From Acidobacteriota bacterium (GTDB lineage Bacteria; Acidobacteriota; Thermoanaerobaculia; Multivoradales; UBA5704): 64,000 nucleotides of DNA. Within the stretch, counting starts at the first letter, position 1, and every line of letters starts with the position of its first letter. The notes beneath the pieces are model-generated. The model made no database searches and was not told where the DNA came from. It was given only the letters and a program-made list of their open reading frames with translations. The DNA lies in contig JAXDKS010000063.1 in NCBI GenBank assembly GCA_034666985.1, forward strand, positions 105,226 to 169,225, in the 5' to 3' direction. The translations under genes and the position numbers were made by a program. Of this stretch, positions 10,925 to 64,000 are shown piece by piece.

Positions 10925-10933
10925 GGCGGACCT

Positions 10934-23682: not shown

Positions 23683-23695
23683 CGGATCGGCGGGC

Positions 23696-28188: not shown

Positions 28189-28218
28189 TTATCTCCTCTC
28201 TCGGCTCACGGCCCCGCT

Positions 28219-41733: not shown

Positions 41734-41854
41734 AGCTTATGGGGAACCATTGTTACCACCCTTGATCCAACATATGGCGGCAAACGCTCAGAAGGTGAGC
41801 GAGCGGGAACCGCGCTTTTTGCGGTTACCGTCCGCTCGACCGTGGAGTTGGGCG

Positions 41855-42469: not shown

Positions 42470-42974
42470 CGTATTTTCCTATTGAGTGACGCCCAACCTA
42501 TGATTCGCCGGCTAAGCATCCAGCCCCTTCGGCTGCCATCTCGTCACTTCCCTTCGTCCAGAAGCGTTGTGTGCCGGCTGTGCTCATCGAGCTAATCTCC
42601 TTGAATTCTTGAGGTTAGACTCAACGTACACCACTTCAGAATGCTCGTCAAGGCAATGCGCTGTGTCGTATAAGCGTCCCAAGAGCCGACTCTTGGTCGG
42701 GTTGCTCAGCCGACAACTTGAGGACTGCCACTCTGAGACGTAAGTGGCGCCAACGATTGGAGATCCTCGGATAACGGCTAGAGCTCTCTTGTCGTATAAG
42801 CGCACCGCAAGAGGGGTGCTGGGGGGCTTAGCCGACAGAGGATCAGTCGCTATGCACTCTCTTCGAGGAAGCCCCTTTAGGCGTAAGGCTCTGAATCCAG
42901 AGAATTTATTCTGAAATCTCAGGTGGCTTATACGACAGCGGCCCTGCCGTATAAGCTCCTCAGAGCGGGCTTTG

Positions 42975-43690
42975 CCGTGAGTCCCGCGACTGCGCCCTGA
43001 GTCATCTGACTTCGGCTTGAGGAAGTTGACGCCGGCCTGAGGAATCTGCCGTCGTCTTGGGGAATCTGCCGTCGCCTTGGAGAAGCCGACATCGGGCTGA
43101 GTCCTCTGCCTTCGTTCTGGGGAATCTGACGCCGGTCTGAGGGATTTGATGCCGGCCTGAGGAAGATGACGCCGCTCTGAGTCCCGAGACTTTGCCGTGA
43201 ATCCCGCGACCACGCCTTGAGTCCTCTGACTTCGCCCTGAGGAAGACGACAACGGTCTGAGGAATCTGCCATCATCTTGGGGGAGTCTGACTTCGTCCTG
43301 AGGAATCCGACAGCCGGCTGAGTCCTTTGACTCCGTTCTGAGGAATCTGACGACGGCCTGAGGAACCTGCCTCCGTCTTGAGGAATCTGACCTCGCCTTG
43401 GGGAAGCCGGCATCGTGCTGAGTCTTCTGCCTTCGTTCTGAGGAATCTGACGCCGCTTTGGAGAAGATGACGGCGCCCTGAGTCCCCCAGACTCTGCCGT
43501 GAGTCCCGCGACTTTGGGCTGAAGAAGATGACGACGGCCTGAGGAAGCCTGCCGCCGTCTGGGGAGTCCGGCCTCGCCCTGGGGAAGCCGGCGCCGTGCT
43601 GAGTCCTTTGACTTCGTGCTGAGGAATCTGACGCCGGTCTGGAGAAGATGACGGCGTCCTGAGTGCCGCGACTTCGGGCTGGGGAAGCTT
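42975..43690. repeat. Tandem array of about 36 degenerate 20-bp direct repeats (consensus approximately CTGAGGAATCTGACGCCGGC) with a 5-unit (100-bp) higher-order periodicity
   Basis: CTGAG/TTGGG recurs at a strict 20-nt phase for more than 30 units. A CTGAGTCC... variant recurs about every fifth unit. All three minus-strand frames are open across it, while the plus strand carries 1-2 TGA per unit. Confidence 0.85.
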
Positions 43691-43734
43691 GCTGCGCGCT
43701 GGATACGACGGATTTGGCGCGGGAGGCCGGGAGC

Positions 43735-43777
43735 CGATATAGAATGAAAAGGGGGAGCGTGCCGCACACGCTCCCCC
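43735..43777 (-). terminator. Rho-independent terminator of the 43788..44171 gene (minus strand)
   Basis: 11-bp perfect stem GGGGGAGCGTG/CACGCTCCCCC, loop UGCGG, followed on the minus strand by TTTTCATTCT. Lies 10 nt after the stop. Confidence 0.75.
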
Positions 43778-43787
43778 GGAAGAGGTA

Positions 43788-44171
43788 CTACGAGTTGGTG
43801 CTGTGAGGAGCCGCCGGCGGGGCCGGCGGCTCCGGCTTCTCCTGCTTCACCTTCTTTCCGCGGAACGGCTGCATACCAAACTCCGCGAGCTTCTCCGAGC
43901 GGAGGCCGTAGTTCTCCGTGAGGAGCCTGCTGATCCCGGTCGCCAACCGCTGACCCTCGTTGACCAGCGTCTTGAGACGCTTCGAGGCGTCCTGCTTGCT
44001 GGCCACGAAGGCCGCCTGCTGTTTGGCGACCTCCTGCGCGTCACCCACCACCTTGTCGAGCCGGAGGCGGGGTCCCTCCAGGTGCGCGAGCTCCGGGGCG
44101 TTCGCGGCCAAGGCCGCCGTGAATCGCGCCAGGCTGCCCAGCTTTCCTGCGTTCATCGTCTCTCTTGCCAT
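43788..44171 (-). CDS. Hypothetical protein (127 aa)
   Basis: Strong RBS AAGGAGA lies 8 nt before the ATG at 44171, and a clean terminator follows. No recognised domain. Confidence 0.6.
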   Translation of the reverse strand: MARETMNAGKLGSLARFTAALAANAPELAHLEGPRLRLDKVVGDAQEVAKQQAAFVASKQDASKRLKTLVNEGQRLATGISRLLTENYGLRSEKLAEFGMQPFRGKKVKQEKPEPPAPPAAPHSTNS

Positions 44172-44456
44172 GGGACTTCTCCTTTCTTGAATGGACCCGC
44201 TCGAACCTGGGCCGCCTGAGCCTCCACGACGACCGCGGAGGTGTCCTTCAGGTACGTTCCCAGTTCAGCGAGACCATGCGCATGATGGACCAACGATTCT
44301 CAATAGTCAACTGTTGGTGGAAATGTTTCTAGCAGATTGCTTCTCCAGAGTCACTGTTGCTATGGTGCTGAGAGACGGCGTCTCTCCTCGACCGCACCCG
44401 AGTTTCGTCACGAGGGATTTTTGCTCCCAGACCGGTGTTCTGCTAGGATCTCTGAC

Positions 44457-45296
44457 ATGGATGACTCCCGTCCCTCCTACGACCTCAAAGCCCCCGGCGC
44501 CTCGGGCCAGTCCCTGCGCTTGCCGGGCCAGCGCTCCTTCCCTCCTCTCGACGAGCACCTGGTCGAGCCCGAGGTGACACGCGACGAGATCATTGGCGGC
44601 CGGCGGGTGGTCGCCATGCCGGCCAAGGAGCCCCATGCCACCCGGCAATTCACGCTCGACTACGTCTTGGCGCCTCATATCGCCCCCGGATACGTCGGGG
44701 CGGCGGACCTGCTGACCCGCGTCGATGTCGATTCGGATTTCGCCAGCGACGCCTGCGTGTACAAGGACGAGGTCGATCCGCAGACCGGCACCCGCTACCT
44801 GGAGGAGATCGTCTTCGAGGTGGTCTCGGAGCAGAACGAGCGGGACGTTACGGAGAAGGCCCTGAGGATGCACCGGCGGGGAGTGCGGCGGATCTTTGCG
44901 ATTTTCGTCAAGGGCGAGCGGCGGGTCTGCGAGTGGTGTGCTGACACTCGGAGCTGGCGTCTCCTGGATCCCTCCTCTTACGTCGAAGACCCCTGCCTCG
45001 AGGTGCCGCTGCGGGTCGCTGCTCTGCTCGACGCGGCGGCGGCGAACCAGGCCGTGGTCGAGGCGCTGGCCGCCCAGGGCGATCCGACGATCCGGAGACG
45101 GGAAGACGCGGCGAGGAGCGAGGGGGAAGCCAGGGGCAGGTCGAAGACCATTCTTCAAGTCCTAGAGGCTCGCGGCATCGCCGTCAGCCCGTCTCAGCGG
45201 GAGGAGATCCTGCGCTGTGACGACCTCGACCGGTTGGACCGCTGGGCGCACCGGGCCGCCCTGGCTCCCTCGGCGGCCGAAGTCCTCACGGAGTAA
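44457..45296 (+). CDS. Uma2/DUF820-like PD-(D/E)xK nuclease-fold protein with a C-terminal DUF4351-like tail
   Basis: The core EPEVTRDEIIGG...EEIVFEVVSEQNERDVTEKALRMHRRGVRRIFAIF resembles the Uma2 family. The C-terminal ...SKTILQVLEARGIAVSPSQREEILRCDDLDRLDRWAHRAALAPSAAEVL matches the DUF4351 tail seen on Rpn/YhgA- and Uma2-type proteins. Confidence 0.65.
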   Translation: MDDSRPSYDLKAPGASGQSLRLPGQRSFPPLDEHLVEPEVTRDEIIGGRRVVAMPAKEPHATRQFTLDYVLAPHIAPGYVGAADLLTRVDVDSDFASDACVYKDEVDPQTGTRYLEEIVFEVVSEQNERDVTEKALRMHRRGVRRIFAIFVKGERRVCEWCADTRSWRLLDPSSYVEDPCLEVPLRVAALLDAAAANQAVVEALAAQGDPTIRRREDAARSEGEARGRSKTILQVLEARGIAVSPSQREEILRCDDLDRLDRWAHRAALAPSAAEVLTE

Positions 45297-45323
45297 CGGT
45301 TCGTCGTACCCGGTCGTACCCGA

Positions 45324-50822: not shown

Positions 50823-50961
50823 CAAGACTGTCCGCAGGCATTCCCCTCTCCCGGGGTGAGGGTCTTGGGTGGGGGCGCTCTTCGGAGGGCCAGTCTGCTA
50901 TGATTCCTTCTTACCATGTCCAGATCAGCTCCCGGAGGGAAGGGGGGCAGGGGGTCCGGTG

Positions 50962-53900
50962 ATGAAGGCTCGTGGCAGCGATTCGGCCCGCTATTCCCGC
51001 CTTGGGATTGCATTCTCTTTCACCCTCCTCTGCCTTTTGCCGGCGCTACCGGCGCGGGCGGTCGTCACCGGTCAGTGCGTCCAGGCGCGGGGAGGCAACA
51101 GTTGCACCGCCAACGACGTGACCTTCGTGCTGGTCGGCCTGGGAGGACAGACGGACGGTTGCGTCGGTCCGACGGACACCGTGACGCTCAATCTCGGCGC
51201 CAAGGTCTCCAACACGACCGCTCAGACGCGCTACGACATCGGGATGTACATCTACGATTTCCTCGGCACCGAGCCGGCCGGCAACCCTGCCGCCAGCGCG
51301 GGATATGCCTACAACGGCTCGGACTGCGCGCGCGAAACCTTGAAGCCCGTCGGCACCTTTTCGCCAGCGGAGACCTGCACCACGAGCCCCGCCCTCGACC
51401 TGGTCACCGGCAACGGCCCGTTCCTGAACGCGGACGACAACGCCGACCGGTGCGGCGACTTGAACAAGAGCACGACCTGTGGCGACTCGTTCATGGTCTT
51501 CCCGGAGCCGATCACGGTGAAGTGCAGCGACGGCCTGGGGGGGGCGGCAGCCGACGGTTTCGTCGACATCCCCACCTGCGCCACCTGGGGCAACTCCGCA
51601 GACGAGGTCCCTGGGGGCAAGGCCAACTGCGGGGCCACGAACGCGACGCATCCGGAGACCGACGTCCTGCCGGGCACTGGCTCGAAATGCAACTGCGCCA
51701 ACGTCAACTCGAACATCCCGCGGCCCAGCCTGTCGCTGTCGTGCAGTTGCTCGCCCACCGTGGTACGCACGGGCGCGACGAACGGCGCCTCGACCGCCTG
51801 CACGGTGACGTTCACCAATAACGTCACCTGTGTTCCTGACGGCACCACGGCCGAGCGCTTCCGCTGCGGCGCGGCGAGCTTCATGCAATTCGATACGGTG
51901 GCCGGCACGCCGAACGGCTCCTTCATCTTCGGCCAGACGCAGGGCAACGCGCCCACGGAGACGACGGGCGGCAGCGTGGACATTTCGACCGCGGGGACCG
52001 TCCGCTGGACGCCGCGCGACACGGTGGCGACCGGCGGCGGCACGACGCTGGGGGTCATCGGCCACAACGAGACCGGCACGCTCTCCTTCCAGTATTTCGT
52101 CAACCCTGCGGTGCCCAACAACACCACGATCAACTTCGTGACCACGGCCTACTGGTCGAACGTGTCCAGCTTCAGCCCGCGGGTCAGCCAGTCGGCGCTG
52201 ACCACGACGTGCAGCATCCGGACGGACGTCAACGCCACCTGGGCCGCGGTGACGAACGTCCGGGCGCGCGAGGAGCAGGGGCGCGTCGTCCTGCTCTGGG
52301 ACACCGCCGCCGAGATCGGCACGGCGGCGTTCGAGCTGGAGCGGCAGGACCCGGCGACCGGCAGATTCGTGCGCGTGACGGACCGCCCGCTGCCGGCGGT
52401 GGCGCAGCTCCCCGGCGGCCACTACCGTTTCGTGGATCCCACGGCGCAGCGGGGGCCGCGCGGCCAGGCGCTGGCCTATCGCATCACCGAGGTCAATCAG
52501 GAGGGGAAGCGGGAGACGTTCGGTCCCTTCCGGGTCCAGGTGGCGGCCGCGGGCAGCCGCGGCGGCGAGGATCAGGGCGGCGGCGTGCGGGCTGGCGATG
52601 TCCGGGGCGGCGACTTCCAGGCCGCGGGCAAGCCGGTCTCGGCGCGGCTCGTGCGGGCTGCGTCCGAGCGGCCGAAGGTGTCCTCAGCCTCAGCCTCCTC
52701 CGCGGCCCCGGCTATGGCACGGCGGGCGAAGGTGTCGGTGGCGAGCGGCGGTCTCCAGCGGGTGCGGCTGGCGGACCTCGCCGGCGCCCTCGGGCTCGGC
52801 ACCAACGAGGCCGCCGGCCAGCTCGGCGCCGGGCGCTTCCGGTTGAGCCACGGCGGGCAGGAGGTGGCCTGGCAGGCGGCGGGCAACGGCGACGGCCTCG
52901 TCTTCTATGGCGAGGCGGTCCACAATGCCTTTACGGATGTGAGCACCTATTGGCTGGAGCCCGGCAGGGGACAGCTCGTGGCCACGGCCACCGGCCCGCC
53001 GGTAGGGAGCCCCGCCGCGGGCTCGTTCACCGACACGCTCCACCTCGAGACCGACGCCATCCCTGCGGTGGCGGCGCCGGTGCCGGTGGACGACTTCTGG
53101 ATCTGGAAGGGCTTCTTCCCCGGCTTCCCCGGCTTCGATCGCGCGACGTTCCCCGTCGCCGTGCCCGCTCCGGCGGGCGGCGGGGGGACTCTCGCGGTCC
53201 ACCTGTACGGCTTCGCCGCCACCCAGCGCGCCGAGCTGCGGCTGAACGGCCGCAATCTGGGCGAGCTCGCCTGGGGAGGAACCGGCCCCGCCACGGTCAC
53301 GGCGGCGGTGCCGGCGGGCGCCCTCGTGGACGGTGGCAACCAGATCGAGATCGTCGCGCTGGAGGGGGAGCTCGGCTTCTGGCTCGACTCCTTCGACCTC
53401 ACCTATCCGCGCACGTACCGGGCGCAGGACGACCGCCTCGCCTTCCGTGCCGCGGCCGGCGCCACGGTGGCGTTGACCGGCTTCCACTCCAGCGACGTGA
53501 CGGTCTACGACGTGGCCGTGCCGCTCGCTCCGCGCCGGCTCGGCGGGCTCAGCGTCCAGCCGCAGGGGGCGGGCTCCTGGGGCGCCGCGTTCGTGGCGCC
53601 GGACGCCGGACCCTTCGTCGCCGCCACCGGGGCGGCGCTCTACCCGGCGGGGGTGCGCGCCAGCGCTCCAGCCGATCTGAGGAATCCGAGCCGCGCCGCC
53701 ACCTATCTGGTGATCAGCCCGCCCGAGCTGCGCGCCGAAGCGCAGCGCTTGGCCGACCTGCGCTCCGCCCAGGGGCTCACCGCCCTGGTGGTGGACGTCG
53801 GCGACGTCATGGACGTCTTCGGCGACGGCCGCTACGATCCGGCGGCGATCCAGAGCTTCCTGGCCTATGCCGCGAAGTCGTGGTCGACGCCGCCGCGCTA

Positions 53901-54738
53901 CGTCGTGCTCGCCGGCAAGGGCACCTACGACTATCGGAACCTCCTGGGGCTCTCCTCGAACCTGGTGCCGCCGCTCCTGGTGGCGACGGACACCGGGCTG
54001 GTGCCGGCCGACTCTCTGTTCACCGACTTCGACGGCGGCGGGGTGCCGGCGGTGGCCATCGGCCGCATCCCCGCGCTCACCGCGGCGGAGATGCGGGCCT
54101 TCGTGGACAAGCTCGCGGCCTACGAGAGCGATGCGGGAGGCGCCTGGACGGGCCAGGTCCTGCTCGCGGCGGACGACGCCGACGGGGGTGGCGACTTCCC
54201 GGCGGCGAGCCAGTCCCTGGCCGGGACGCTCCCCGCGGGGCTCGCCCTCTCTCGCGTCACCGCCGATCCGGCGCAGATCCAGGCCAGCCGGTCGCAGCTC
54301 CAGGCGGCTCTGCGCCAGGGACAGGTGCTGATGAATTACGTCGGCCATGGCGGGCTCGACCGCCTGGGCTCCGAAGGCCTGCTGCTGACGACCGACGTGG
54401 CACAGCTCGGCAACGCGCCCCGCCTGCCCGTGCTGACCGCCCTCACCTGCCTCATCTCGCAGTTCGCCTATCCCACGGTGACCTCGCTGGGTGAGGAGCT
54501 GGTGTTGAGGTCCGACGGCGGGGCCATCGCGGTCTTCGGGCCGACGTGGCTCTCGTACAACACGCCGGCGACCGCCCTCGGCGGGTACCTGCTGCCGCAG
54601 CTCGCGGCGCCCGGCGGCGGCCGGCTCGGCGACCGGCTGCTGAGGGGCCTGAACGCCTACGCCGCCGCAGGCGGCGATCGCAAGATGCTCCGGCTCTATA
54701 CCCTGCTGGGAGATCCGGCGCAGGTGCTCAAGCGCTAG
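50962..54738 (+). CDS. Large secreted protein with Cys-rich N-terminal region and C-terminal peptidase C25 (gingipain-like) domain
   Basis: Signal peptide (LGIAFSFTLLCLLPALPARA). The C-terminal block YLVISPPELRAEAQRLADLR...YVVLAGKGTYDYRN...MNYVGHGG...LTALTCLISQFAY fits the C25 catalytic His/Cys arrangement. Confidence 0.7.
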   Translation: MKARGSDSARYSRLGIAFSFTLLCLLPALPARAVVTGQCVQARGGNSCTANDVTFVLVGLGGQTDGCVGPTDTVTLNLGAKVSNTTAQTRYDIGMYIYDFLGTEPAGNPAASAGYAYNGSDCARETLKPVGTFSPAETCTTSPALDLVTGNGPFLNADDNADRCGDLNKSTTCGDSFMVFPEPITVKCSDGLGGAAADGFVDIPTCATWGNSADEVPGGKANCGATNATHPETDVLPGTGSKCNCANVNSNIPRPSLSLSCSCSPTVVRTGATNGASTACTVTFTNNVTCVPDGTTAERFRCGAASFMQFDTVAGTPNGSFIFGQTQGNAPTETTGGSVDISTAGTVRWTPRDTVATGGGTTLGVIGHNETGTLSFQYFVNPAVPNNTTINFVTTAYWSNVSSFSPRVSQSALTTTCSIRTDVNATWAAVTNVRAREEQGRVVLLWDTAAEIGTAAFELERQDPATGRFVRVTDRPLPAVAQLPGGHYRFVDPTAQRGPRGQALAYRITEVNQEGKRETFGPFRVQVAAAGSRGGEDQGGGVRAGDVRGGDFQAAGKPVSARLVRAASERPKVSSASASSAAPAMARRAKVSVASGGLQRVRLADLAGALGLGTNEAAGQLGAGRFRLSHGGQEVAWQAAGNGDGLVFYGEAVHNAFTDVSTYWLEPGRGQLVATATGPPVGSPAAGSFTDTLHLETDAIPAVAAPVPVDDFWIWKGFFPGFPGFDRATFPVAVPAPAGGGGTLAVHLYGFAATQRAELRLNGRNLGELAWGGTGPATVTAAVPAGALVDGGNQIEIVALEGELGFWLDSFDLTYPRTYRAQDDRLAFRAAAGATVALTGFHSSDVTVYDVAVPLAPRRLGGLSVQPQGAGSWGAAFVAPDAGPFVAATGAALYPAGVRASAPADLRNPSRAATYLVISPPELRAEAQRLADLRSAQGLTALVVDVGDVMDVFGDGRYDPAAIQSFLAYAAKSWSTPPRYVVLAGKGTYDYRNLLGLSSNLVPPLLVATDTGLVPADSLFTDFDGGGVPAVAIGRIPALTAAEMRAFVDKLAAYESDAGGAWTGQVLLAADDADGGGDFPAASQSLAGTLPAGLALSRVTADPAQIQASRSQLQAALRQGQVLMNYVGHGGLDRLGSEGLLLTTDVAQLGNAPRLPVLTALTCLISQFAYPTVTSLGEELVLRSDGGAIAVFGPTWLSYNTPATALGGYLLPQLAAPGGGRLGDRLLRGLNAYAAAGGDRKMLRLYTLLGDPAQVLKR

Positions 54739-54789: not shown

Positions 54790-55491
54790 GTGCGCTCCTA
54801 CGTCGTCTTCCTGGTGCTGCTGGTGGTCAAGGCGCTCTCGCGTCTCTTCTACCGCATCGACATGCGGTGGATCGGCGACGTGCCGCCCGATCCCTGGAAG
54901 CGCGTCCGCATCGCCGCCATCCTCAATCACACCAGCCTGTGGGAGGCCCTCTTCGCCGGCGGCTGCCCTCCGAGCTTCCTCTGGCGCCTGGCCCGCCATG
55001 GCGTCGTCCCCATCGCCCAGAAGACGGCCAACCGGGCGCTGGTGGGACGGTTCTACGGCCTGGTCGCGGCGCGGGTCATCTCGATCACCCGGGAGCGCGA
55101 CGAGACCTGGAGCCAGGTGCTCAAGGAGATCGATCCCGACGCCATGGTGATCATCCTGCCGGAGGGGAGGATGAAGCGGGCCACGGGCCTCGACTCCGAG
55201 GGCAAGCCGATGACGGTGCGCGGCGGCGTCGCCGACATCCTGGAGACCGTGGACGACGGACGGCTGCTCATCGCCTACAGCGGCGGCCTCCACCACGTGC
55301 ACACCCCGGGCGACCGCTTCCCCCACCTGTTCAAGACCATCCGCATGCGGATGGAGGTGGTGGAGATCGCCGAGTACCGCGCCGCCCGCCTGGCCGAAGG
55401 GGGCGCCAAGGGCTTCCGCCGCGCGGTGGTCAACGACCTCCAGCAGCGGCGCGACGAGATCTGCCCGCCCCTGGAGGCGGCCGGCTCGTAG
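54790..55491 (+). CDS. Lysophospholipid (1-acyl-glycerol-3-phosphate) acyltransferase family protein, PlsC-like
   Basis: NHTSLWEAL (HxxxxD-type block I) and ILPEGRM (block III) motifs, plus an N-terminal TM. GTG at 54790. Confidence 0.7.
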   Translation: MRSYVVFLVLLVVKALSRLFYRIDMRWIGDVPPDPWKRVRIAAILNHTSLWEALFAGGCPPSFLWRLARHGVVPIAQKTANRALVGRFYGLVAARVISITRERDETWSQVLKEIDPDAMVIILPEGRMKRATGLDSEGKPMTVRGGVADILETVDDGRLLIAYSGGLHHVHTPGDRFPHLFKTIRMRMEVVEIAEYRAARLAEGGAKGFRRAVVNDLQQRRDEICPPLEAAGS

Positions 55492-55510: not shown

Positions 55511-55852
55511 ATGTCCGCTCTCAGGATGCATTTCGCCGCCGGCCTGCTGGCACTGATCCTGGCGCTCCTCGCCAGTTCGCCGGGAGCCGGCGCGCGGATC
55601 GCGAAGTCCCACGATCCCGCGCTGGCCGACGACCCTGGCGTCCTCGCGCCCTGCGACGCCGCCGACGTGGACGACGACGACAGCTCTCCCGGCGGCGAGC
55701 CGCCGGAGTCCGGCAACTGGGCCCTCTGCGCCCAGGGCCCGCAGTTGGGGCTCGACCCCAGCGGCCGGGTGGACCTCGCGCGCAGCTATACGGGGCTCTC
55801 CCCCGCCCGCCACCTGCGGCGCGGCGGCAATTCGCCTCCGGGGTGCCCGCCA
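55511..55852 (+). CDS. Hypothetical small secreted Asp/Pro-rich protein
   Basis: Signal-peptide-like N-terminus, then low-complexity sequence. Weak. Confidence 0.25.
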
Positions 55853-56757
55853 TGACGGAGCCTTCGTCCCCCCGGACGCAGACGGCCGAGGCCCACCACC
55901 GGGCGGTCGAGCGCGTCATCCAAGCCCTGAGGCGCAACCCCTCCAGCGACTTCTCCCTCCAGGCCATGGCCAGCCTGGCGCTGATGAGCCGCTTCCACTT
56001 CAACCGCGTCTTCCGCCAGCTCACGGGCGTGCCGCCCGGCTACTTCCACAGCGCCCTGCGGCTGCAGGCGGCCAAGCGGCTGCTGCTCACCACCGACCTC
56101 AGCGTCCTCGACGTCTGCTTCGCGGTGGGCTACCAGAGCCCGGGCACCTTCAACCGCCGCTTCAACGAGATGGTGGGTCTGTCGCCGCAGCGCGTGCGCC
56201 GGCTGGCGCGGACGACGCCCTCGCTGCTGGCGCGGCTGCCGGAGCTGCTGCCCGCTCCGGGCGCGGCGGGGACGTCGGGGATCGCGGGGATCCCGGGATC
56301 GGTGGCCGGGCCGCCGGACTTCGAGGGGCTGGTCTTCGTGGGCCTGTTCTCCCGTCCCATCCCCCAGGGCCGGCCCGCCGGTTTCGCCCTGCTCCCCGGC
56401 CCCGGCCGCTTCCGCATGCCCGCCGTCCCGGACGGCGACTACCACCTGCTCGCGGTGGCGCTGCCGGCCGGCGCCGATATCGCGATCGCCCTGATGGACC
56501 CGGACGCCGGGCTCCGCTCGCGGCCGCAGGAGCGCCGCGTCCCGGTGCGGGGCGGGGCCACGCCGGACCCTTCGCACCTCGTGCTGCGGCCCGCCGAGGA
56601 CTTCGATCCGCCGATCCTGCCCGTCCTCCCCCTGCTCCTTGCCGAACGCCTGGGGAGGACAAAAAAATATGGGGCGGACGCCACGCGCGCCGCCCCACCA
56701 CACCCCGCCACCCCACCCCTTGCTATGCAGGAGCCTGGAAGAATCCGCCAAGCCTGA
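55852..56757 (+). CDS. AraC/XylS-family transcriptional regulator (N-terminal HTH, C-terminal uncharacterised domain)
   Basis: Paired HTH_AraC helices (FSLQAMASLALMSRFHFNRVFRQLTGVPPGYF...LLTTDLSVLDVCFAVGYQSPGTFNRRFNEMVGLSPQRVRR). ATG at 55852. Confidence 0.8.
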   Translation: MTEPSSPRTQTAEAHHRAVERVIQALRRNPSSDFSLQAMASLALMSRFHFNRVFRQLTGVPPGYFHSALRLQAAKRLLLTTDLSVLDVCFAVGYQSPGTFNRRFNEMVGLSPQRVRRLARTTPSLLARLPELLPAPGAAGTSGIAGIPGSVAGPPDFEGLVFVGLFSRPIPQGRPAGFALLPGPGRFRMPAVPDGDYHLLAVALPAGADIAIALMDPDAGLRSRPQERRVPVRGGATPDPSHLVLRPAEDFDPPILPVLPLLLAERLGRTKKYGADATRAAPPHPATPPLAMQEPGRIRQA

Positions 56758-56853: not shown

Positions 56854-58002
56854 ATGGCGGCGGGAGGTGCGGTGTTCGGTAAACCCATCGAGCTGTTCAG
56901 GATTTTCGGGTTCGCGATCCGGATCGATCCCTCCTGGCTCATCGTCGCCATCCTGGTGACGTGGACCTTCACGCGGACCTTCCCGGCCTGGGCGCCCGGC
57001 CTCGCGTCGTCCACCTATCTGGTGATGGGGGTGGCCGCAGCGATCGGCTACTTCGTCTCCGTGGTGCTCCACGAGCTCTCCCACGCCCTGGTGGCCAGGA
57101 CGTACGGCATGGAGATGCGGGGCATCACCCTGTTCATCTTCGGCGGCGTGGCCGAGATGCCCGGCGAGCCGACGACGGCCCAGGCCGAATTCGTGGTGGC
57201 CGCGGCCGGGCCGGCGGCGAGCTTCGCCCTCGCCCTGGCCTTCGGCGCGGGCTACCTGGTCGCCACCGTGGCCGGCCTGCCCGCCCCGGTCGCGGCGATC
57301 TGCGGCCTCCTCGGCGTGCTCAACGCCACCCTGGCGCTGTTCAACCTGGCCCCCGCCTTCCCGCTCGACGGCGGCCGCATGCTGCGCGCCGTGCTCTGGG
57401 GATGGAGCGGCAACCTGCGCCGGGCCACCCGCATCGCCTCCGGCATCGGCTCGGGGTTCGGCCTGCTGCTGGTGGGCCTGGGCGTGCTCTCCACCGTGCG
57501 CGGCAACCTCGTCTCGGGATTGTGGTTCTTCCTCCTCGGCCTGTTCGTGCGCAACGCGGCCCAGGCCTCCTACCAGCAGCTCCTGCTGCGCCGGGCCCTG
57601 GAGGGCGAGCCGGTCTCCCGCTTCATGCAGACCGACCCGGTGACCGTGCCGCGGGCCATCTCCGTGCTCGACCTGGTGCAGGGCTACGTCTACAAGCACC
57701 ACTTCAAGATGTTCCCGGTGGTGGACGGCGGCCGGCTCCTGGGCTGCGTCACCACCCGGCAGGTGCGCGAGCTCCCCCGCGACGAGTGGGACCGCCAGAC
57801 AGTCGGCTCGCTGGCCGAGCGCTGCACCCCCGAGAACACGGTCGGGGCGGACACCGACGCCATGCAGGCCCTCGCCATGATGAGCCGCACGGGCGCCTCC
57901 CGCCTGATGGTGGTGGAGGGCGACCGCCTGCTCGGCATCCTCTCGCTCAAGGACCTGCTGCGGTTCTTCTCGCTGAAGATGGAGCTCGAAGAGGTCCGCT
58001 GA
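56854..58002 (+). CDS. M50 (site-2 protease) family membrane metalloprotease with C-terminal CBS pair
   Basis: HELSHAL zinc motif within a multi-TM core, LDG motif (AFPLDGGRML), then two CBS-like repeats (VVDGGRLLGCVTTRQV / VVEGDRLLGILSLKDLL). Confidence 0.85.
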   Translation: MAAGGAVFGKPIELFRIFGFAIRIDPSWLIVAILVTWTFTRTFPAWAPGLASSTYLVMGVAAAIGYFVSVVLHELSHALVARTYGMEMRGITLFIFGGVAEMPGEPTTAQAEFVVAAAGPAASFALALAFGAGYLVATVAGLPAPVAAICGLLGVLNATLALFNLAPAFPLDGGRMLRAVLWGWSGNLRRATRIASGIGSGFGLLLVGLGVLSTVRGNLVSGLWFFLLGLFVRNAAQASYQQLLLRRALEGEPVSRFMQTDPVTVPRAISVLDLVQGYVYKHHFKMFPVVDGGRLLGCVTTRQVRELPRDEWDRQTVGSLAERCTPENTVGADTDAMQALAMMSRTGASRLMVVEGDRLLGILSLKDLLRFFSLKMELEEVR

Positions 58003-58092
58003 GCCCTTTCGAAGCGGCGAAAATATGAGATAGTTATCTCCAGGACGGCTCGTCTAGCCCCGCTCACGGCACCTCAAGATTGAGGAGCATTG

Positions 58093-59142
58093 ATGACGAC
58101 GAACGAGAACCGTACGACCGCTCTCTCCCTGCCTCAGGCACCCCCGCGGCCGCGTTCCCTGCGCGCCGGCCTCCGGCGTGCCCTGTTCGGCATCGATCCG
58201 CGGGAGACGACGTTCGCCCGCCGCGGCTTCCATGCCCCCGGCGATGAAGCGGGACCTGTGCGTGAGCGCCTGGAGCGGGTGGGCGCCACCTTCGTCCGGG
58301 GCTACCACGCCGCCCTGGAGGAGGAGCGGCCGGAGCCCCTGGCGGCGCGGATCGACGCCGAGGTGGAGCGCGAATTCCGCGGCTTCGCCTACGAGGGGGC
58401 GGGCATGGCCCTCGCGCTGCTCGACACGCTGCTGCCAGGCCGGCGAGACCGGCTGGCCCGCTTCCTCGCCGGCCCGGGCGAGCCCCAGACCTACATCATC
58501 TACGTCGGCGCCGGCTGGGTGATGGCCCGGCTGCCGGTCTCCCCCGAGCGCTACCTCTCCCGCCTGGCCGATCCCGTCACCGATCCAATCATGCGCTGGC
58601 TGGCCCTGGACGGCTTCGGCTTCCACGAGGGCTTCTTCCACGCCTCCCGGTCGGTGGCCCGCCAGGAGGTGCCCCGGCGACTTCGCGGCCATCGCGGCTA
58701 CTTCCGGCGGGGGTTCGACCAGGGGCTGGGCCGCAGCCTGTGGTTCGTGGAGGGCGCCGACGTCGGCCGCCTGCCGCGGACGATCGGCGCCTTCCCCGCC
58801 TCCCGCCAGCCGGACCTGTGGAGCGGCCTGGGCCTCGCCTGCGGCTACGCGGGCGGGCGCACCCGCTCCGAGGTCGAGTCCCTGCGGGCCGCGGCCGGCC
58901 CGTTCGCACCGCAGCTCGCCCAGGGGGTGGCCTTCGCCGCCAAGGCGCGGCAACGGGCGGGCAACCCGGCCGCCCACACCGAGCTCGCCTGCCGGGTGAT
59001 CTGCGGCTGCTCCGCCGAGGAGGCCGCGGCGGTGACCGACGAAGCCCTCCACGATCTCCCTTCAGACCGTCCGGACGAGCCCGCCTTCGAGGTCTGGCGC
59101 CGGCGGATCCAGGACCACTTCTCCTCAGGGAGCCCCGCATGA
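58093..59142 (+). CDS. unbL: UnbL-like (DUF1702) enediyne/polyene PKS cassette protein
   Basis: Assigned mainly from conserved position (first gene of the unbL-unbV-unbU-pksE cassette, translationally coupled by an ATGA overlap) and size of about 350 aa. RBS GAGGAG lies 5 nt before ATG 58093. Confidence 0.6.
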   Translation: MTTNENRTTALSLPQAPPRPRSLRAGLRRALFGIDPRETTFARRGFHAPGDEAGPVRERLERVGATFVRGYHAALEEERPEPLAARIDAEVEREFRGFAYEGAGMALALLDTLLPGRRDRLARFLAGPGEPQTYIIYVGAGWVMARLPVSPERYLSRLADPVTDPIMRWLALDGFGFHEGFFHASRSVARQEVPRRLRGHRGYFRRGFDQGLGRSLWFVEGADVGRLPRTIGAFPASRQPDLWSGLGLACGYAGGRTRSEVESLRAAAGPFAPQLAQGVAFAAKARQRAGNPAAHTELACRVICGCSAEEAAAVTDEALHDLPSDRPDEPAFEVWRRRIQDHFSSGSPA

Positions 59143-61139
59143 CCGAGCAGAACGGCCTCTTCCGCCGCAACGCGACCCGGCTCGTGGCCGTGGCGCTGAT
59201 CTTCGCCCTCTACGGGTTCGCGCGCCTGCCGACGCTGCCCGAGCCGCAGCGGCAGGCCCTCGCCTCCCGCTTCTCCTTCACCCGCACGCCGATCGCCACG
59301 CCGGCCGGCGCCAACCTCGACCGCACCGTCCGCCATGTCCACCCGGGCTTCCAGGACATCGCCTCCTGGATCTCCAGCGTCGGAGCCGGCGTGGCGCTCA
59401 ACGACCTCGACGGCGACGGGCTGGCCAACGACCTCTGCTCGGTGGATCCCCGGCTCGATCAGGTCCTGGTCCAGCCGGCGCCGCGCACGGGGGATCGCTA
59501 CCCCCTCTTCGCCCTCGATCCGTCGCCGCTCCCCTATGACGCGCGGACCACGGCGCCCATGGGCTGCCTGCCCGGCGACTGGAACGAGGACGGGCGGATG
59601 GACCTGCTGGTCTACTACTGGGGCCGGCCGCCCATCGCCTTCCTGCGTGTGGCTGACGACGGCCCGCCGTCAGCGGCCTCGTACCGGCCGGTGGCGGTGG
59701 CGCCCGGCGATCAGATCTGGAACACCAACGCCCTGACCAGCGCCGACGTGGACGGCGACGGCCACCTCGACCTGATCGTCGGCAACTACTTCCCGGACGG
59801 CATGCGGGTGCTCGACGCCCAGGCCACCGACCGCGCCCATCTGCACCGCTCCATGTCGCGCTCGGAGAACGGCGGCCAAAACCGGCTGCTGCTCTGGCAG
59901 GCGGGCACCGGCGGTCCTCAGCCCACGGTGCGCTTCGCCGACGTCGCCAACGCCTTCGATCCCCAGACCACCTATTCCTGGACCCTGGCCGTGGGCGCCG
60001 CCGATCTCGACGGCGACCTGCTGCCGGAGATCTACTTCGGCAACGACTTCGGCAACGACCGGCTGCTGCGCAACCTGTCGACGCCCGGCCACCCGCGCTT
60101 CGCCGCGGTCGAGGGGCGGCGGACCTTCACCTCCCCCACCTCCAAGGTGCTGGGGCACGACTCGTTCAAGGGCATGGGCGTCGACTTCGCGGACCTGAAC
60201 GGCGACGGCATCCCGGACCTGTACGTGAGCAACATCGCCCAGAACTACGCCCTGGAGGAGAGCCACTTCGTGTGGGTGAGCACGGGCGACGTGGCACCCC
60301 TGCGCAAGGGGGTGGCCCCCTACACCGACCAGAGCGAGACCCTCGGCCTGTCGCGCAGCGGCTGGGGCTGGGACGCGCGCTTCGCGGACTTCGACAACGA
60401 CGGCGTGCCGGAGGCCACGCAGGCCATCGGCTTCGTGCGCGGCGAGGCCAACCGCTGGCCCGAGCTGCACGAGCTCGCCATGGGCAACGACAACAACATG
60501 GACCACCCTGGCGCCTGGGCTCACATCAAGCCGGGCGACGACCTCTCCGGGCACCTGCACAACCCCTTCTTCGTCCGCGCCCGCGACGGCCGCTACTACG
60601 ACGTGGCCCCCGAGCTGGGGATGGACGACAGCCACGTCAGCCGCGGCATCGCCATCGCCGACGTGGATGGCGACGGCGATCTCGACTACGCCGTGGCCGA
60701 TCAGTGGGAGACCTCCTACTTCTTCCGTAACGACAGCCCGCACCCGGGCGCCTCACTGGAGCTGGTGCCCCGGCTGCCGACGACGTCGGGAGACATCGGG
60801 CGGACGCGTCCGGCGGTCGGCGCCAAGGTGACCGTCACCCTGCCGGACGGCCGGCGACGGGTGGCGCAGGTGGACGGCGGCAGCGGCCACTCGGGCAAGC
60901 GGGCGCCCGAGGTCCACTTCGGCCTCGGCTCGATGAGCCCCGCGACCGTGCTGCGCGTCGACGTGCGCTGGCGCGACGGACAGGGCCGCCCGCAGGCCAC
61001 CACCCTGCGGCTCGCCCCCGGGCGGCACACCGTGGTGCTCGGGGCGGTGACGGCGCCGCCGCCGGTGGTGGCAGGCGTGGCAGGGGACGTCAGGCAGGAC
61101 GTCGTGAAACCGGCAGAGTCCAAGGGAAAGGCGGATTGA
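59139..61139 (+). CDS. unbV: UnbV-like secreted protein (FG-GAP/VCBS repeats + ASPIC-UnbV C-terminal domain)
   Basis: Signal/TM N-terminus, repeated DGDG/FG-GAP-like Ca-binding loops (NDLDGDGLAND, DVDGDGHLDLIVGNYF, DLNGDGIPDLYVSN, DVDGDGDLDYAV), and a C-terminal ASPIC-like block ...VDGGSGHSGKRAPEVHFGLGS... Confidence 0.75.
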   Translation: MTEQNGLFRRNATRLVAVALIFALYGFARLPTLPEPQRQALASRFSFTRTPIATPAGANLDRTVRHVHPGFQDIASWISSVGAGVALNDLDGDGLANDLCSVDPRLDQVLVQPAPRTGDRYPLFALDPSPLPYDARTTAPMGCLPGDWNEDGRMDLLVYYWGRPPIAFLRVADDGPPSAASYRPVAVAPGDQIWNTNALTSADVDGDGHLDLIVGNYFPDGMRVLDAQATDRAHLHRSMSRSENGGQNRLLLWQAGTGGPQPTVRFADVANAFDPQTTYSWTLAVGAADLDGDLLPEIYFGNDFGNDRLLRNLSTPGHPRFAAVEGRRTFTSPTSKVLGHDSFKGMGVDFADLNGDGIPDLYVSNIAQNYALEESHFVWVSTGDVAPLRKGVAPYTDQSETLGLSRSGWGWDARFADFDNDGVPEATQAIGFVRGEANRWPELHELAMGNDNNMDHPGAWAHIKPGDDLSGHLHNPFFVRARDGRYYDVAPELGMDDSHVSRGIAIADVDGDGDLDYAVADQWETSYFFRNDSPHPGASLELVPRLPTTSGDIGRTRPAVGAKVTVTLPDGRRRVAQVDGGSGHSGKRAPEVHFGLGSMSPATVLRVDVRWRDGQGRPQATTLRLAPGRHTVVLGAVTAPPPVVAGVAGDVRQDVVKPAESKGKAD

Positions 61140-61142
61140 GAG

Positions 61143-62048
61143 ATGGCTGAGAAGAAAGACATGCGCCTGGGTGCCCTGCGCCGGTTCGCGACTGCGATCA
61201 CGGTCCTCAACGTCCTGGGCCACACGGTGCTCGGCTTCGAGCAGTCGCTCGCCACGCCGGTGACGGCCGTGCTCGTCGCCTACGCGATGGAGATCCTGCT
61301 CGAGGTCGTCGAGTCGCGGCGGCTCGGCCGCAAGCCGCGCTTCCTGGGCCCCGGCTCCACCTTCGTCGACTTCCTGCTCTCGGCCCACATCACGGGTCTC
61401 GCGGTTGGCATGCTGCTCTACGCCAACGAGCGGCTGCTGCCCGTGGCCTTCGCCGCCGCCGTGGCCATCGGCTCGAAGTACCTGTTCCGGGTGGGCACCA
61501 ACGGCGCCCGCCGGCACTTCTTCAATCCTTCGAACCTGGGGATCACGGCGACCCTCCTCGCCTTCCCCTGGGTGGGCATCGCCCAGCCTTACATGTTCAC
61601 CGAGAACCTCTCCGGCGCCGGCGACTGGGTGCTGCCGATCATCATCGTCTGCTCGGGCTCGTTCCTCAACACCAAGTTCACCCGCCGTATCCCGCTGATC
61701 CTCGCTTGGCTCGGCGGCTTCGTGCTGCAGGCGGCGATCCGCCACTTCGCCTTCGGCAACCTCTTCCTGCCTTCGCTCAACCCGCTGACCGGGATGGCTT
61801 TCCTGCTCTTCACCTTCTACATGGTGACCGACCCGGCGACGACGCCGGTGACGCGGCGCGGGCAGATCGCCTTCGGCCTGTCGATGGCGGCGGCCTACGG
61901 GACGCTGATGGCGTTCCACATCGTCTTCGGCCTCTTCTTCGGCCTCAGCGCGGTGTGCGCCGGCCGCGGCGTCCTCCTCTACCTCAAGGCCCTGGCGGCG
62001 CAGCGGGCCGAGGCGCGGGTCAAGGTGGCCTTCCCGGCGGAGGCATGA
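61143..62048 (+). CDS. unbU: UnbU-like polytopic membrane protein of the enediyne/polyene cassette
   Basis: About 300 aa with about 8 predicted TM helices. Sits between unbV and pksE, with an ATGA overlap with pksE at 62045-62048. Confidence 0.65.
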   Translation: MAEKKDMRLGALRRFATAITVLNVLGHTVLGFEQSLATPVTAVLVAYAMEILLEVVESRRLGRKPRFLGPGSTFVDFLLSAHITGLAVGMLLYANERLLPVAFAAAVAIGSKYLFRVGTNGARRHFFNPSNLGITATLLAFPWVGIAQPYMFTENLSGAGDWVLPIIIVCSGSFLNTKFTRRIPLILAWLGGFVLQAAIRHFAFGNLFLPSLNPLTGMAFLLFTFYMVTDPATTPVTRRGQIAFGLSMAAAYGTLMAFHIVFGLFFGLSAVCAGRGVLLYLKALAAQRAEARVKVAFPAEA

Positions 62049-64000
62049 GCGTGGGCGAGGGCATCGCCATCGTCGGGATGGCATGCCGCTATCCCGACGC
62101 CCGCACGCCTGGCGAGCTGTGGGAGAACGTCCTGGCGCGCCGGCGGGCCTTCCGCCGGCTGCCGCCGGAGCGGCTGCGCCTGGAGGACTACGCCGAGAGC
62201 CGCCCGGGCGATCCGGACAGCCTCTACCTGCGGGAGGCCGCGGTGCTCGAGGGGTGGGAGTTCGACCGCGTGCGCTTCCGCGTCGCCGGTCCGACCTTCC
62301 GTTCCGCCGACCTCGCCCACTGGCTGGCGCTCGACGTCGCCGCCCAGGCCCTGGCCGACGCCGGCTTCCCCGACGCCGAGGGCCTGCCCCGCGACTCGAC
62401 CGGCGTGCTGCTCGGCAACACCCTCACCGGCGAGTTCTCCCGCGCCCAGCTCATGCGCCTGCGCTGGCCCTACGTGCGCCGCACCCTCGCCGCCGCCCTC
62501 GCCGGCGAAGGGTGGGAGGAGGCGCGGACGGCGGACTTCCTCGCCCGCCTGGAGCCGGCCTACAAGGCGCCGTTCGAGGAGCCGATGGAGGAGTCGCTGG
62601 CCGGCGGCCTCGCCAACACCATCGCCGGGCGGATCTGCAATCACTTCGACCTCCACGGCGGCGGCTACATCCTGGACGGCGCCTGCGCCTCCTCGCTGCT
62701 GGCCACGGCCAACGCCTGCTCCGCCCTGACCGCGGGCGACCTCGACGTGGCCCTGGCCGGCGGCGTCGATCTCTCGCTCGACCCCTTCGAGCTGGTGGGC
62801 TTCGCCCGCACCGGCGCCCTCACCCATGACGAGATGCGGATCTTCGACGTGCGCTCGGCCGGCTTCCTCCCCGGCGAGGGGTGCGGCTTCGTGGTGCTGA
62901 TGCGCGAGGGGGACGCGGCCCGCCTCGGCTGCCGCGTCCGCGCCGTCATCCGCGGCTGGGGCATCTCCTCCGACGGCCACGGCGGCATCAGCCGGCCGGA
63001 GGCCGAGGGGCAGAAGATGGCCCTGCGCCGCGCCTACCGGCGGGCCGGCTTCGGCATCGAGACCGTGGCCCTGTTCGAGGGGCACGGCACCGGCACGGCG
63101 GTGGGCGACGCCGCCGAGGTCACCGCGTTGTCCCAGGCTCGGCGCGAGAGCATCCCCGGGGCATCAACCGCGCCTCCGGCCGCCCTGGGCTCGATCAAGG
63201 CCAACATCGGCCACACCAAGGCGGCGGCGGGCATCGCCGGGCTGATCAAGGCGGCGCTCGCCGTCGATCATCAGATCCTGCCGCCCACCACCGGCTGCGA
63301 CGAGCCTCACGCCGAGATCGCGGGGCCGGGCGCCGTCCTGCGCGTGCTCCAGCGTGGCGAGCCCTGGCCCGCCGGCCTGCCGCTGCGCGCCGCCGTCTCC
63401 GCCATGGGCTTCGGCGGCATCAACTCCCATCTCGTGCTGGAGGGGACGGCCGAGTCGCGCCGCAATGTCTTGGGGGGTCTGGGGAGCCGCGAGCGGGAGC
63501 TCGTCGCCTCCTGGCAGGACGCCGAGCTGCTGCTGCTCGCCGGCCCGGATGCCGCCGCTCTCGCCGAGCAGGCCGAGCGCCTGGCGGTGGTGGCCGGCCG
63601 CGCCGCGCGGGCCGAGCTGGCCGATCTCGCGGCCGAGTTGCGCCGCAGGTTGAACGGTGGCGCCGTGCGGGCCGCGGTGGTGGCCGCCAAGCCCGCCGAG
63701 GCCGAGGACGGGCTGCGCCGCCTCGCCGGCTGGCTGCACGACGGCGAGACCTCCCGCCTCGATCCCCGCCACGGCGTCTTCCTCGGGTCCGGCCCCCGCG
63801 GGCGCATCGGCTTCCTCTTCCCCGGCCAGGGCGCGCCCTCCCATCTCGACGGCGGCGCCCTGCGCCGGCGCTTCGAGGAGCTGGAGGCGGTCTACGGCCC
63901 CGCCGGTCTGGACCCGCAGGCGGACCCCGTCGACACGGCCGTGGCCCAGCCCGCCATCCTCAGCCACTCGCTCGCCGGCCTGCGTCTGCTCGACCGCCTG
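62045..64000 (+). CDS. pksE: Iterative type I enediyne-type polyketide synthase (PKSE), N-terminal KS and start of AT domain; 3' end lies outside the window
   Basis: MSVGEGIAIVGMACRYPDARTPGELWENVLARRRAFRRLP is the hallmark PKSE N-terminus. The KS active-site Cys (GYILDGACASSL) and His motifs (EGHGTGTAVGD; IGHTKAAAG) are present. An AT-like GFLFPGQGA motif appears near 63800. Confidence 0.85.
   Translation, partial: MSVGEGIAIVGMACRYPDARTPGELWENVLARRRAFRRLPPERLRLEDYAESRPGDPDSLYLREAAVLEGWEFDRVRFRVAGPTFRSADLAHWLALDVAAQALADAGFPDAEGLPRDSTGVLLGNTLTGEFSRAQLMRLRWPYVRRTLAAALAGEGWEEARTADFLARLEPAYKAPFEEPMEESLAGGLANTIAGRICNHFDLHGGGYILDGACASSLLATANACSALTAGDLDVALAGGVDLSLDPFELVGFARTGALTHDEMRIFDVRSAGFLPGEGCGFVVLMREGDAARLGCRVRAVIRGWGISSDGHGGISRPEAEGQKMALRRAYRRAGFGIETVALFEGHGTGTAVGDAAEVTALSQARRESIPGASTAPPAALGSIKANIGHTKAAAGIAGLIKAALAVDHQILPPTTGCDEPHAEIAGPGAVLRVLQRGEPWPAGLPLRAAVSAMGFGGINSHLVLEGTAESRRNVLGGLGSRERELVASWQDAELLLLAGPDAAALAEQAERLAVVAGRAARAELADLAAELRRRLNGGAVRAAVVAAKPAEAEDGLRRLAGWLHDGETSRLDPRHGVFLGSGPRGRIGFLFPGQGAPSHLDGGALRRRFEELEAVYGPAGLDPQADPVDTAVAQPAILSHSLAGLRLLDRL

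Follow-up and report, generated by a model that had tools for sequence, protein, structure and literature searches.

Few natural cytotoxins are as potent as the enediynes, which are used as payloads of antibody-drug conjugates. To our knowledge, enediynes come only from actinomycetes (or from an ascidian extract), and we know of almost no characterised secondary metabolites from Acidobacteriota. In characterised pathways, the enediyne polyketide synthase (PKSE) primes its own carrier domain and iteratively builds a conjugated C16 polyene, bound to its acyl carrier protein (ACP) domain, from malonyl units. A hot-dog thioesterase releases this chain, with decarboxylation and dehydration, as pentadecaheptaene. 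Gui et al., writing in 2024 (Nat Chem Biol 20:1210), are said to have obtained an iodoheptaene, a diiodotetrayne and pentaynes from the five-gene cassette alone, the diiodotetrayne reportedly being the common enediyne intermediate. Here we analyse such a cassette (E5-E4-E3-E-E10, where E is the PKSE and E10 the thioesterase), which begins near the 3′ end of a 64-kb stretch of Acidobacteriota DNA (contig JAXDKS010000063.1, positions 105,226 to 169,225), referred to below as the window.

The five-gene cassette is the sole part common to all enediyne clusters, and 7 of the 61 cassettes present in GenBank in 2014 came from outside the Actinomycetales (PMC4480864). Whatever the enediyne class, the PKSE and thioesterase yield 1,3,5,7,9,11,13-pentadecaheptaene, which is a true discrete precursor of the core (PMC9992847). 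Metagenomes contain large non-actinobacterial clades of enediyne-type ketosynthase (KS) domains without a known product, and Acidobacteria are not among the phyla to which these clades were affiliated (PMC10308959). The window locus is a member of such non-actinobacterial 'enediyne-like' type I polyketide synthase (PKS) clades (PMC10308959; PMC4480864), and its KS, like theirs, stands apart in phylogeny from every MIBiG enediyne KS.

The only verified reference locus in our comparison was the C-1027 (sgc) cluster of Streptomyces globisporus, which we identified with locus L055 because the exact SgcE10 sequence of PDB 4i4j is present there. It has the same five families, the same PKS architecture and E5-E4-E3-E contiguous in the same order. 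Identity to the window proteins is 41% for E5, 45% for E4, 50% for E3, 51% for E and 55% for E10, over 94-99% of their length (coverage of 95% for E4, 98% for E3 and 99% for the PKSE), and an AraC gene of the same subfamily as that of the window lies nearby. The two loci nevertheless differ in several ways. The sgc E10 follows about 6.5 kb after E, beyond a set of accessory genes, whereas in the window locus E10 overlaps the PKS stop. The sgc cluster carries a flavin reductase, oxidoreductases, a P450 and other conserved genes, none of which is present at the window locus, but has no counterpart of the MMPL exporter found here. The position of the CalE7 residue Tyr29 is Tyr in the sgc thioesterase and Pro in that of the window. 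The calicheamicin and dynemicin cassettes (CalE8/CalE7 and DynE8/DynE7) belong to large decorated clusters for 10-membered enediynes in Micromonospora, in which E4/E3 are usually split from E5-E. The thioesterase, acyltransferase (AT) and ACP of the window locus all match their counterparts in these systems, but the calicheamicin and dynemicin PKSEs fall on the opposite side of the actinomycete/non-actinomycete split from the window PKSE.

Sequence comparisons show the cassette to be complete and intact. We think it fairly probable that this is a stably inherited cassette-only locus, and that it would stop short of a mature enediyne, its product being an exported linear C15 polyene or polyyne. 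As a cassette it is no novelty, since NCBI and JGI already name its proteins as enediyne biosynthesis proteins. The exact sequences are in GenBank (MEA2604482-MEA2604486, from an Acidobacteriota metagenome-assembled genome, MAG) under the names 'enediyne biosynthesis protein' (three proteins), 'enediyne polyketide synthase' and 'enediyne core biosynthesis thioesterase', and IMG agrees for the PKS. What is undescribed in the literature that we found is the exporter-linked, cassette-only layout at a fixed chromosomal site across an Acidobacteriota class; a full-text search gave no match pairing an enediyne polyketide synthase with MMPL. Likewise undescribed is the clean split of these loci from all actinomycete clusters, by both PKS phylogeny and gene content.

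Cassette genes and their products

The window matches exactly a part of contig Ga0467065_0000021 (395,714 bp) of JGI metagenome 3300044812. The loci fetched from this parent contig, L001 and L002, reach 12 kb beyond the window end, and the locus analysis covers 76 kb (the 64-kb window and 12 kb downstream). Positions in L002 equal window positions minus 52044. The preliminary description of the window had recognised four coupled genes of the enediyne cassette; open reading frames (ORFs), overlaps and Pfam matches all bear this out. The cassette features are as follows.

58003..58092: intergenic region of 90 bp that contains a GAGGAG ribosome-binding site and a stretch rich in AT; probably holds the promoter of the cassette operon
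58093..59142, + strand: E5 (UnbL), soluble all-alpha protein, 349 aa; Pfam DUF1702, E=1.4e-118, profile positions 5-319 of 319
59139..61139, + strand: E4 (UnbV), 666 aa; FG-GAP_3 2e-28, UnbV_ASPIC 1.9e-15, FG-GAP 7.5e-13; MEA2604483.1
61143..62048, + strand: E3 (UnbU), polytopic membrane protein related to RnfD/NqrB, 301 aa; NQR2_RnfD_RnfE 1.1e-11; MEA2604484.1
62045..64000 (window end), + strand: PKSE, first 652 of 1951 residues; ketoacyl-synt 1.9e-50, Ketoacyl-synt_C 2.1e-32; MEA2604485.1
L002 15853-16272: thioesterase (E10), 4HBT_2, 139 aa; its start overlaps the PKS stop (TTGA)

The genes are tightly packed: ATGA start/stop overlaps can be read in the sequence at 59139-59142 and 62045-62048, the gap between E4 and E3 is 3 nt, and a GAGGAG Shine-Dalgarno sequence lies 5 nt 5′ of the ATG at 58093. 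A scan with the sigma-70 consensus found no promoter-like site in the region before E5. A GG...TTG motif noticed there by eye was rejected as a sigma-54 promoter because of its wrong spacing.

E5 is modelled as an all-alpha helical repeat without an informative structural neighbour. E4 consists of an FG-GAP beta-propeller and an ASPIC/UnbV domain preceded by a single N-terminal membrane anchor or signal (hydrophobic residues 12-30); its location is probably extracytoplasmic. E3 has several hydrophobic segments. Among NCBIfam models, E5 and E4 have no match and all PKS matches are below cut-off. The closest genome relatives, L003 and L006, each have an additional DUF1702 (E5) paralogue directly 5′ of the regular E5 (L003 1542-2480 and L006 5011-5976). 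These paralogues are 46-55% identical to the adjacent E5 and to the window E5; the window, unlike L003 and L006, has a single E5 copy.

The part of the PKSE inside the window comprises the KS (about 62060-63298), the KS-AT linker and the beginning of the AT from about 63812. The remaining domains and a thioesterase had been predicted to lie just past the window end, and the parent contig has them all. The complete PKSE is 1951 aa long with the architecture KS-AT-ACP-KR-DH-PPTase, thus including the ketoreductase (KR), dehydratase (DH) and phosphopantetheinyl transferase (PPTase) domains on which the assignment depended. Its gene ends at window-equivalent position 67900, where a hot-dog thioesterase overlaps its stop codon. 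Pfam recognises KS, AT, KR and DH strongly, PP-binding and ACPS weakly. The AT region matches the DynE8 crystal constructs (6.5e-74), and the carrier domain, with its serine in DLHLNSISVGQL, matches the CalE8 ACP (2l9f, 6e-22). The C-terminus aligns to Sfp over the PPTase motifs SHxGR, GxDxE and WxxKE. In an alignment of 13 sequences, the catalytic residues of every PKSE domain are invariant (Cys214/His347/His390 in the KS). Moreover, the cassette genes encode full-length Pfam domains and are free of frameshifts and stop codons.

The thioesterase matches SgcE10 (4i4j, 1e-45), CalE7 (2w3x, 1e-43) and DynE7 (2xfl, 2e-38). It keeps the equivalents of CalE7 Asn19 and Arg37, both conserved in all thioesterases compared (L002-L089). 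The position of Tyr29 behaves differently: it is Tyr in 38 of 38 actinomycete thioesterases, whereas the 27 scored from non-actinomycetes have His in 22 cases and Tyr in one, with Pro only in the window and L006. According to Kotaka et al., Tyr29 was reportedly shown in 2009 to assist decarboxylation. As Tyr29 is not kept in the window thioesterase, its release chemistry may differ.

Phylogeny and gene content of related loci

A scan of one genome per species gave 80 loci with 10-kb flanks, and the counts below are over 81 cassette loci (41 non-actinomycete and 40 actinomycete). Window-locus proteins were mapped onto these loci by tblastn, and all locus ORFs were clustered into families. The order E5-E4-E3-E-E10, put forward as canonical before the comparison was made, is indeed shared by most of the 81 cassette loci, being contiguous in nearly all non-actinomycete and many actinomycete ones. 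The suspected non-actinomycete host is likewise confirmed by the NCBI label (Acidobacteriota) and by the closest relatives, which are Thermoanaerobaculia MAGs.

JGI, ENA and Logan assemblies contain many PKSE homologues with 60-90% identity, the named ones being Thermoanaerobaculia; those at about 57-59% identity are from Planctomycetota, and there is no actinomycete among the best 120 PKSE relatives. E5 has 5186 database relatives at E<=1e-10, the best 120 of which are all at least 68% identical, and DUF1702 has 1503 members at E<=1e-3 among 1.84 billion representatives at 50% identity. A distance-based neighbour-joining tree was built from 79 full-length PKSEs (60 bootstraps). Actinomycete and non-actinomycete PKSEs are separated in 60 of 60 bootstraps, with the window on the non-actinomycete side. 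The window PKSE groups, again in 60 of 60, with those of L006, L003, L005 and L004 (Thermoanaerobaculia/Acidobacteriota), and not with the PKSEs of characterised enediyne producers in this tree. Two MAGs labelled 'uncultured Clostridia' (L029) and 'uncultured Bifidobacteriaceae' (L030) carry non-actinomycete-type cassettes, and their bin labels may be wrong. L029 falls in the non-actinomycete clade of the tree; L030 is 55% identical to the window PKS and has a 2816-aa ORF 5′ of its cassette.

Gene content divides the loci along the same line. Flavin_Reduct (37 of 40 loci), GMC oxidoreductase (25), DUF5987 (22) and five families without Pfam domains (20-23 loci each) were found only beside actinomycete cassettes, and P450 genes in 31 actinomycete and 2 non-actinomycete loci. 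P450 alone excepted, the roughly ten accessory families occur in none of the 41 non-actinomycete loci, and neither the window nor L002 has a tblastn match to them at E<1e-3. When 34 of the larger window ORFs, with only some of the smaller ones, were surveyed with Pfam, no further biosynthetic gene came to light; the matches were to regulators, proteases, a PorU-like C25 peptidase and genes for alginate-type O-acetylation. When the downstream gene calls are added to these 34 ORFs, the 76 kb show no Pfam-recognisable apoprotein, sugar or aromatic tailoring, peripheral-moiety or self-sacrifice resistance genes.

These observations bear directly on the possibility that the locus makes a genuine, perhaps novel, cyclic enediyne. 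Its maturation enzymes would then have to lie elsewhere in the genome or be unrecognised (for example, among unannotated secreted proteins), and the RND pumps described below would serve for self-protection efflux. Such an arrangement is conceivable, the surveyed region being a part of a much longer contig, but we consider it unlikely. The accessory families are absent both from the non-actinomycete loci (P450 in two excepted) and from the 76 kb analysed here, as are apoprotein and sugar or aromatic tailoring genes from the surveyed ORFs. In eight Thermoanaerobaculia genomes, the locus is abutted by housekeeping genes. Finally, the PKSE is set apart by the 60/60 split from every actinomycete PKSE, including all characterised ones sampled.

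Downstream transporters and the chromosomal site

The genes that follow the thioesterase on the parent contig are listed below.

L002 16310-18709, + strand: MMPL1, starting 37 nt after the thioesterase
L002 18887-19795, minus strand: secreted protein of 302 aa
L002 19926-22214, + strand: MMPL2
L002 22274-23164, minus strand: secreted paralogue of 296 aa, with a good terminator after the gene
L002 23357-24301, minus strand: brkB/yihY
L002 from 24422, + strand: gene for the NAD-dependent DNA ligase LigA (ligA), 8.6 kb beyond the PKS

The terminator after the 296-aa gene was the only credible one in the scan. MMPL1 and MMPL2 match the HAE3 model (TIGR00921) with E-values of 4e-52 and 3e-43 (177 and 148 bits, against a curated cut-off of 352) and an HpnN-like model with 2e-21 and 4e-34. 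The Pfam MMPL match scores 104.7 bits against a cut-off of 20.5 and covers two stretches; there are about 12 hydrophobic segments and sterol-sensing-like domains, and searches of PDB gave no sequence match for the MMPL proteins. HpnN and HAE3 exporters, which transport hopanoids or sterols to the outer membrane, share the MMPL and sterol-sensing-like domains with MMPL1/2. Unlike in those systems, there are no hopanoid biosynthesis genes near MMPL1/2, and the transporter genes accompany a polyketide cassette.

Of the 41 non-actinomycete loci, 16 have an MMPL gene no more than 10 kb from the cassette, compared with none of the 40 actinomycete ones (Fisher p=5e-6, uncorrected for phylogeny). Besides the Thermoanaerobaculia, such cassettes are found in Pyrinomonadaceae, Planctomycetota, Verrucomicrobiota, Eiseniibacteriota, Kapaibacteriota and Zixibacteria. 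We examined eight relatives from the Thermoanaerobaculia clade (L003, L004, L005, L006, L083, L086, L087 and L088). Between the thioesterase and brkB they have from zero to two MMPL genes, together with homologues of the secreted proteins, and the MMPL and thioesterase genes of L086 share 4 nt. The cassette occupies the same site beside brkB in seven of the eight (L003, L004, L006, L083, L086, L087 and L088); L005 ends earlier. The presence of ligA beside brkB was confirmed in L083, L086, L087 and L088, and msrB follows beyond ligA in four relatives. The window has about 70% G+C throughout, and the GC content of the cassette is typical of the contig. The same chromosomal site in relatives and the unremarkable GC content together argue for vertical inheritance within the lineage, not recent transfer. 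Recent horizontal acquisition was ruled out on these two grounds.

The 302-aa protein has a cleavable signal peptide and 125 homologues, all annotated as 'hypothetical', and no Pfam or NCBIfam match. Its AlphaFold model, built with 40 homologues, is all-beta (pLDDT 90.7). Orthologues of the two secreted proteins (302 aa and 296 aa) flank the MMPL gene in L004, L005 and L083; those of the 302-aa protein beside the MMPL gene in L005 and L083 are 60-67% identical. Weaker homologues of the 296-aa protein have the same position in L086 and L087. Another five Acidobacteriota loci, of which four are from Pyrinomonadaceae, have weaker homologues of the 302-aa protein just 5′ of E5. In another Thermoanaerobaculia locus without a PKS nearby, L084 (on an 8.8-Mb contig), a tandem array of nine ORFs (2707-15207; 216-386 aa, no Pfam domains) includes one member of the 302-aa family (P0210), and two more members (P0218 and P0221) come from the same contig.

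The barrel protein DynF of the dynemicin cluster binds palmitate and has been proposed to hold the heptaene; early processing requires its orthologue Sgd15 (PMC8725005). Structurally, DynF (PDB 6ubl) is an eight-stranded lipid-binding beta-barrel, and the all-beta model of the 302-aa protein is suggestive of it, although the likeness is weak and may serve as a lead only. Foldseek comparison of the model with PDB gave nothing significant, and a sequence-profile search of PDB did not find DynF, returning only a spurious phage decoration protein. Two actinomycete-specific families of about 200 aa, considered as candidate DynF homologues, had no PDB match either.

Could the MMPL transporters and secreted proteins be unrelated envelope-lipid machinery that happens to share a conserved neighbourhood with the cassette, while the polyene stays in the cell or exits otherwise? 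The whole region is syntenic in relatives, so adjacency could reflect shared ancestry. HpnN-type HAE3 transporters export other lipids, more remote relatives of the 302-aa protein are found in unrelated settings, and in L003 and L088 the interval from thioesterase to brkB contains no MMPL gene. However, MMPL genes recur beside cassettes in several other lineages and are missing from all 40 actinomycete loci. Their spacing is also close, with a 37-nt same-strand gap to the thioesterase here and the 4-nt overlap in L086. We therefore regard a chance association as rather improbable.

Upstream neighbours and other window content

Four genes precede the cassette on the same strand.

54790..55491, + strand: g233, membrane-anchored protein of 233 aa; weak PlsC-type match to Pfam Acyltransferase, E=0.0023 (below cut-off), N-terminal hydrophobic segment
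55526..55855, + strand: hypothetical protein of 109 aa (JGI gene call), N-terminal hydrophobic segment; overlaps the AraC start by 4 nt
55852..56757, + strand: AraC-family regulator, 301 aa; HTH_18 5.4e-22
56854..58002, + strand: site-2-protease-like M50 membrane peptidase with two CBS domains; Peptidase_M50 4.9e-21, CBS 1.4e-17

Cassette-associated AraC proteins have an N-terminal HTH_18 and a conserved C-terminal domain of about 150 aa. Residues ~5-267 of the 301 in the window protein align with AraC genes located within 10 kb of cassettes (35-48% identity, E=1e-22 to 1e-65). The subfamily stands beside the cassette in 49-50 of the 81 loci, including L055 (sgc) at 7e-42, which makes it the most widespread non-cassette family. 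Its position varies. Other Acidobacteriota loci, chiefly those of Pyrinomonadaceae, and a few further lineages have the gene directly 3′ of the thioesterase. Many actinomycetes have it some 2.5 kb past the thioesterase, and in sgc, where we take it to be SgcR2, it follows the PKS at about 2 kb. It is absent from the closest Thermoanaerobaculia relatives. Because the same subfamily adjoins cassettes across loci, sgc included, the window AraC is likely a pathway-specific regulator of the cassette. The preliminary description had proposed it as a local regulator, and the near full-length alignment beside the cassette in 50 of the 81 loci lends support to that proposal.

The M50/CBS protease, proposed for the same role, is present as described, but a regulatory function finds no support, since the gene is conserved only in L003 and L087 (71% orthologue 5′ of E5) and absent from the other loci compared. 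Orthologues of g233 with 76-79% identity lie 5′ of the cassette in L006 and L087. The protein may be a lipid-modifying partner or a mere syntenic neighbour, and its membership in the system is uncertain. No Pfam match, and no homologue in any related locus, was found for the 109-aa protein.

Genes reported further upstream (a duplicated MacB/FtsX permease, an STPK-TPR protein and an FHA-GAF-sigma54 activator) are also present. L087 shares the upstream arrangement MacB/FtsX - glycosyltransferase - 243-aa protein - M50/CBS. Between the glycosyltransferase and the cassette neighbourhood, the window has a gene for a 1289-aa Peptidase_C25 protein (50869-54738) that resembles the type IX secretion sortase PorU (NF033707, 1e-61, below cut-off) and is absent from the otherwise syntenic L087. 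An AHSA1/SRPBCC-fold protein (PF08327) is encoded directly 5′ of E5 in L088 (5324-5812) and has no counterpart in the window. CalC, the calicheamicin self-resistance protein, has the AHSA1/SRPBCC fold.

Elsewhere in the window, an MBOAT acyltransferase and AlgX-like SGNH proteins (9467-12226 and 5711-6880) resemble an alginate-type polysaccharide O-acetylation module and are unrelated to the cassette. A 1647-codon ORF at 23582-28525, in a stretch of 75% G+C, has no Pfam match and faces an ORF of nearly the same length on the opposite strand. The lowest GC content (about 0.60, compared with about 0.70) is at 41300-45300, where there are only short minus-strand ORFs; those at 41855-42469 and 44307-45158 have no Pfam match. 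No tRNA or Rfam family was found in the window.

Discussion

Since all five proteins are intact and coupled, the PKSE and thioesterase would be expected to perform the same early chemistry as in the characterised systems. E3, E4 and E5 would then act on the polyene as they do in actinomycetes, and given the lone N-terminal anchor of E4 and the polytopic nature of E3, these post-PKS steps would probably take place at the membrane. With no accessory oxidoreductases at the locus and housekeeping genes bounding it, the pathway most likely ends at a polyene or polyyne that is a linear C15 chain. The two HAE3/MMPL RND transporters, together with the adjacent, putatively beta-barrel secreted proteins, might move this hydrophobic product to the envelope or the exterior, and the AraC protein of the cassette-associated subfamily may control expression.

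Several considerations weigh against this reading. The chemistry is extrapolated across about 50% identity, as no product is known for any non-actinomycete cassette (PMC10308959). We covered 76 kb of the 395.7-kb contig, and maturation genes could lie elsewhere in the genome. The HAE3 match is under the NCBIfam curated cut-off (177 vs 352 bits), and the close relatives L003 and L088, having no MMPL gene between thioesterase and brkB, make the exporter link frequent, not obligatory. In addition, we know of no core-cyclising enzymes established even in actinomycetes, and hence the absence of such enzymes is not provable by homology.

One last alternative, that the ORF at 62045 is a polyunsaturated fatty acid (PUFA) or fatty-acid-type synthase, or that the cluster is a decayed relic without a product, is highly improbable. 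Although the KS scores well against PfaA (TIGR02813) among NCBIfam models and no sigma-70-like promoter was found, the PfaA score of 491 bits is half of the 1010 cut-off. There is one ACP of the CalE8 kind instead of a tandem, the locus has a C-terminal PPTase and an E10-type thioesterase as well as E3-E5, and the downstream gene calls include no pfa partner genes. A relic is equally contradicted by the intact genes with all catalytic residues conserved and by the abundance of the clade, at 60-90% identity, across many metagenomes. Both readings were ruled out on the PfaA score, the single ACP and the intact genes.

Returning to an exported linear product, a wider generalisation can be offered, one that we hold as tentative and rather doubtful at present. 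In Thermoanaerobaculia, and probably in other diderm phyla, the cassette may be a vertically inherited module for linear C15 polyenes or polyynes, the product of which would pass to dedicated HAE3 RND transporters and secreted beta-barrel carriers and be deposited in, or shed from, the outer envelope. Polyene/polyyne use would then be broader, and possibly ancestral, with the enediynes of actinomycetes a later elaboration, and the lineage-specific loss of Tyr29 (His in most non-actinomycetes, Pro here) may mark a shift in release chemistry.

If the locus does produce a true enediyne after all, it would be the first from a Gram-negative phylum. If, on the other hand, this compact locus of six to ten genes stops at the linear stage, it would represent a natural minimal system for the roles of E3, E4 and E5, and would indicate the product of a large non-actinomycete branch of synthases in soils and sediments. 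Should a polyyne or polyene be exported, the known repertoire of Acidobacteriota would gain a novel type of envelope lipid or diffusible toxin.

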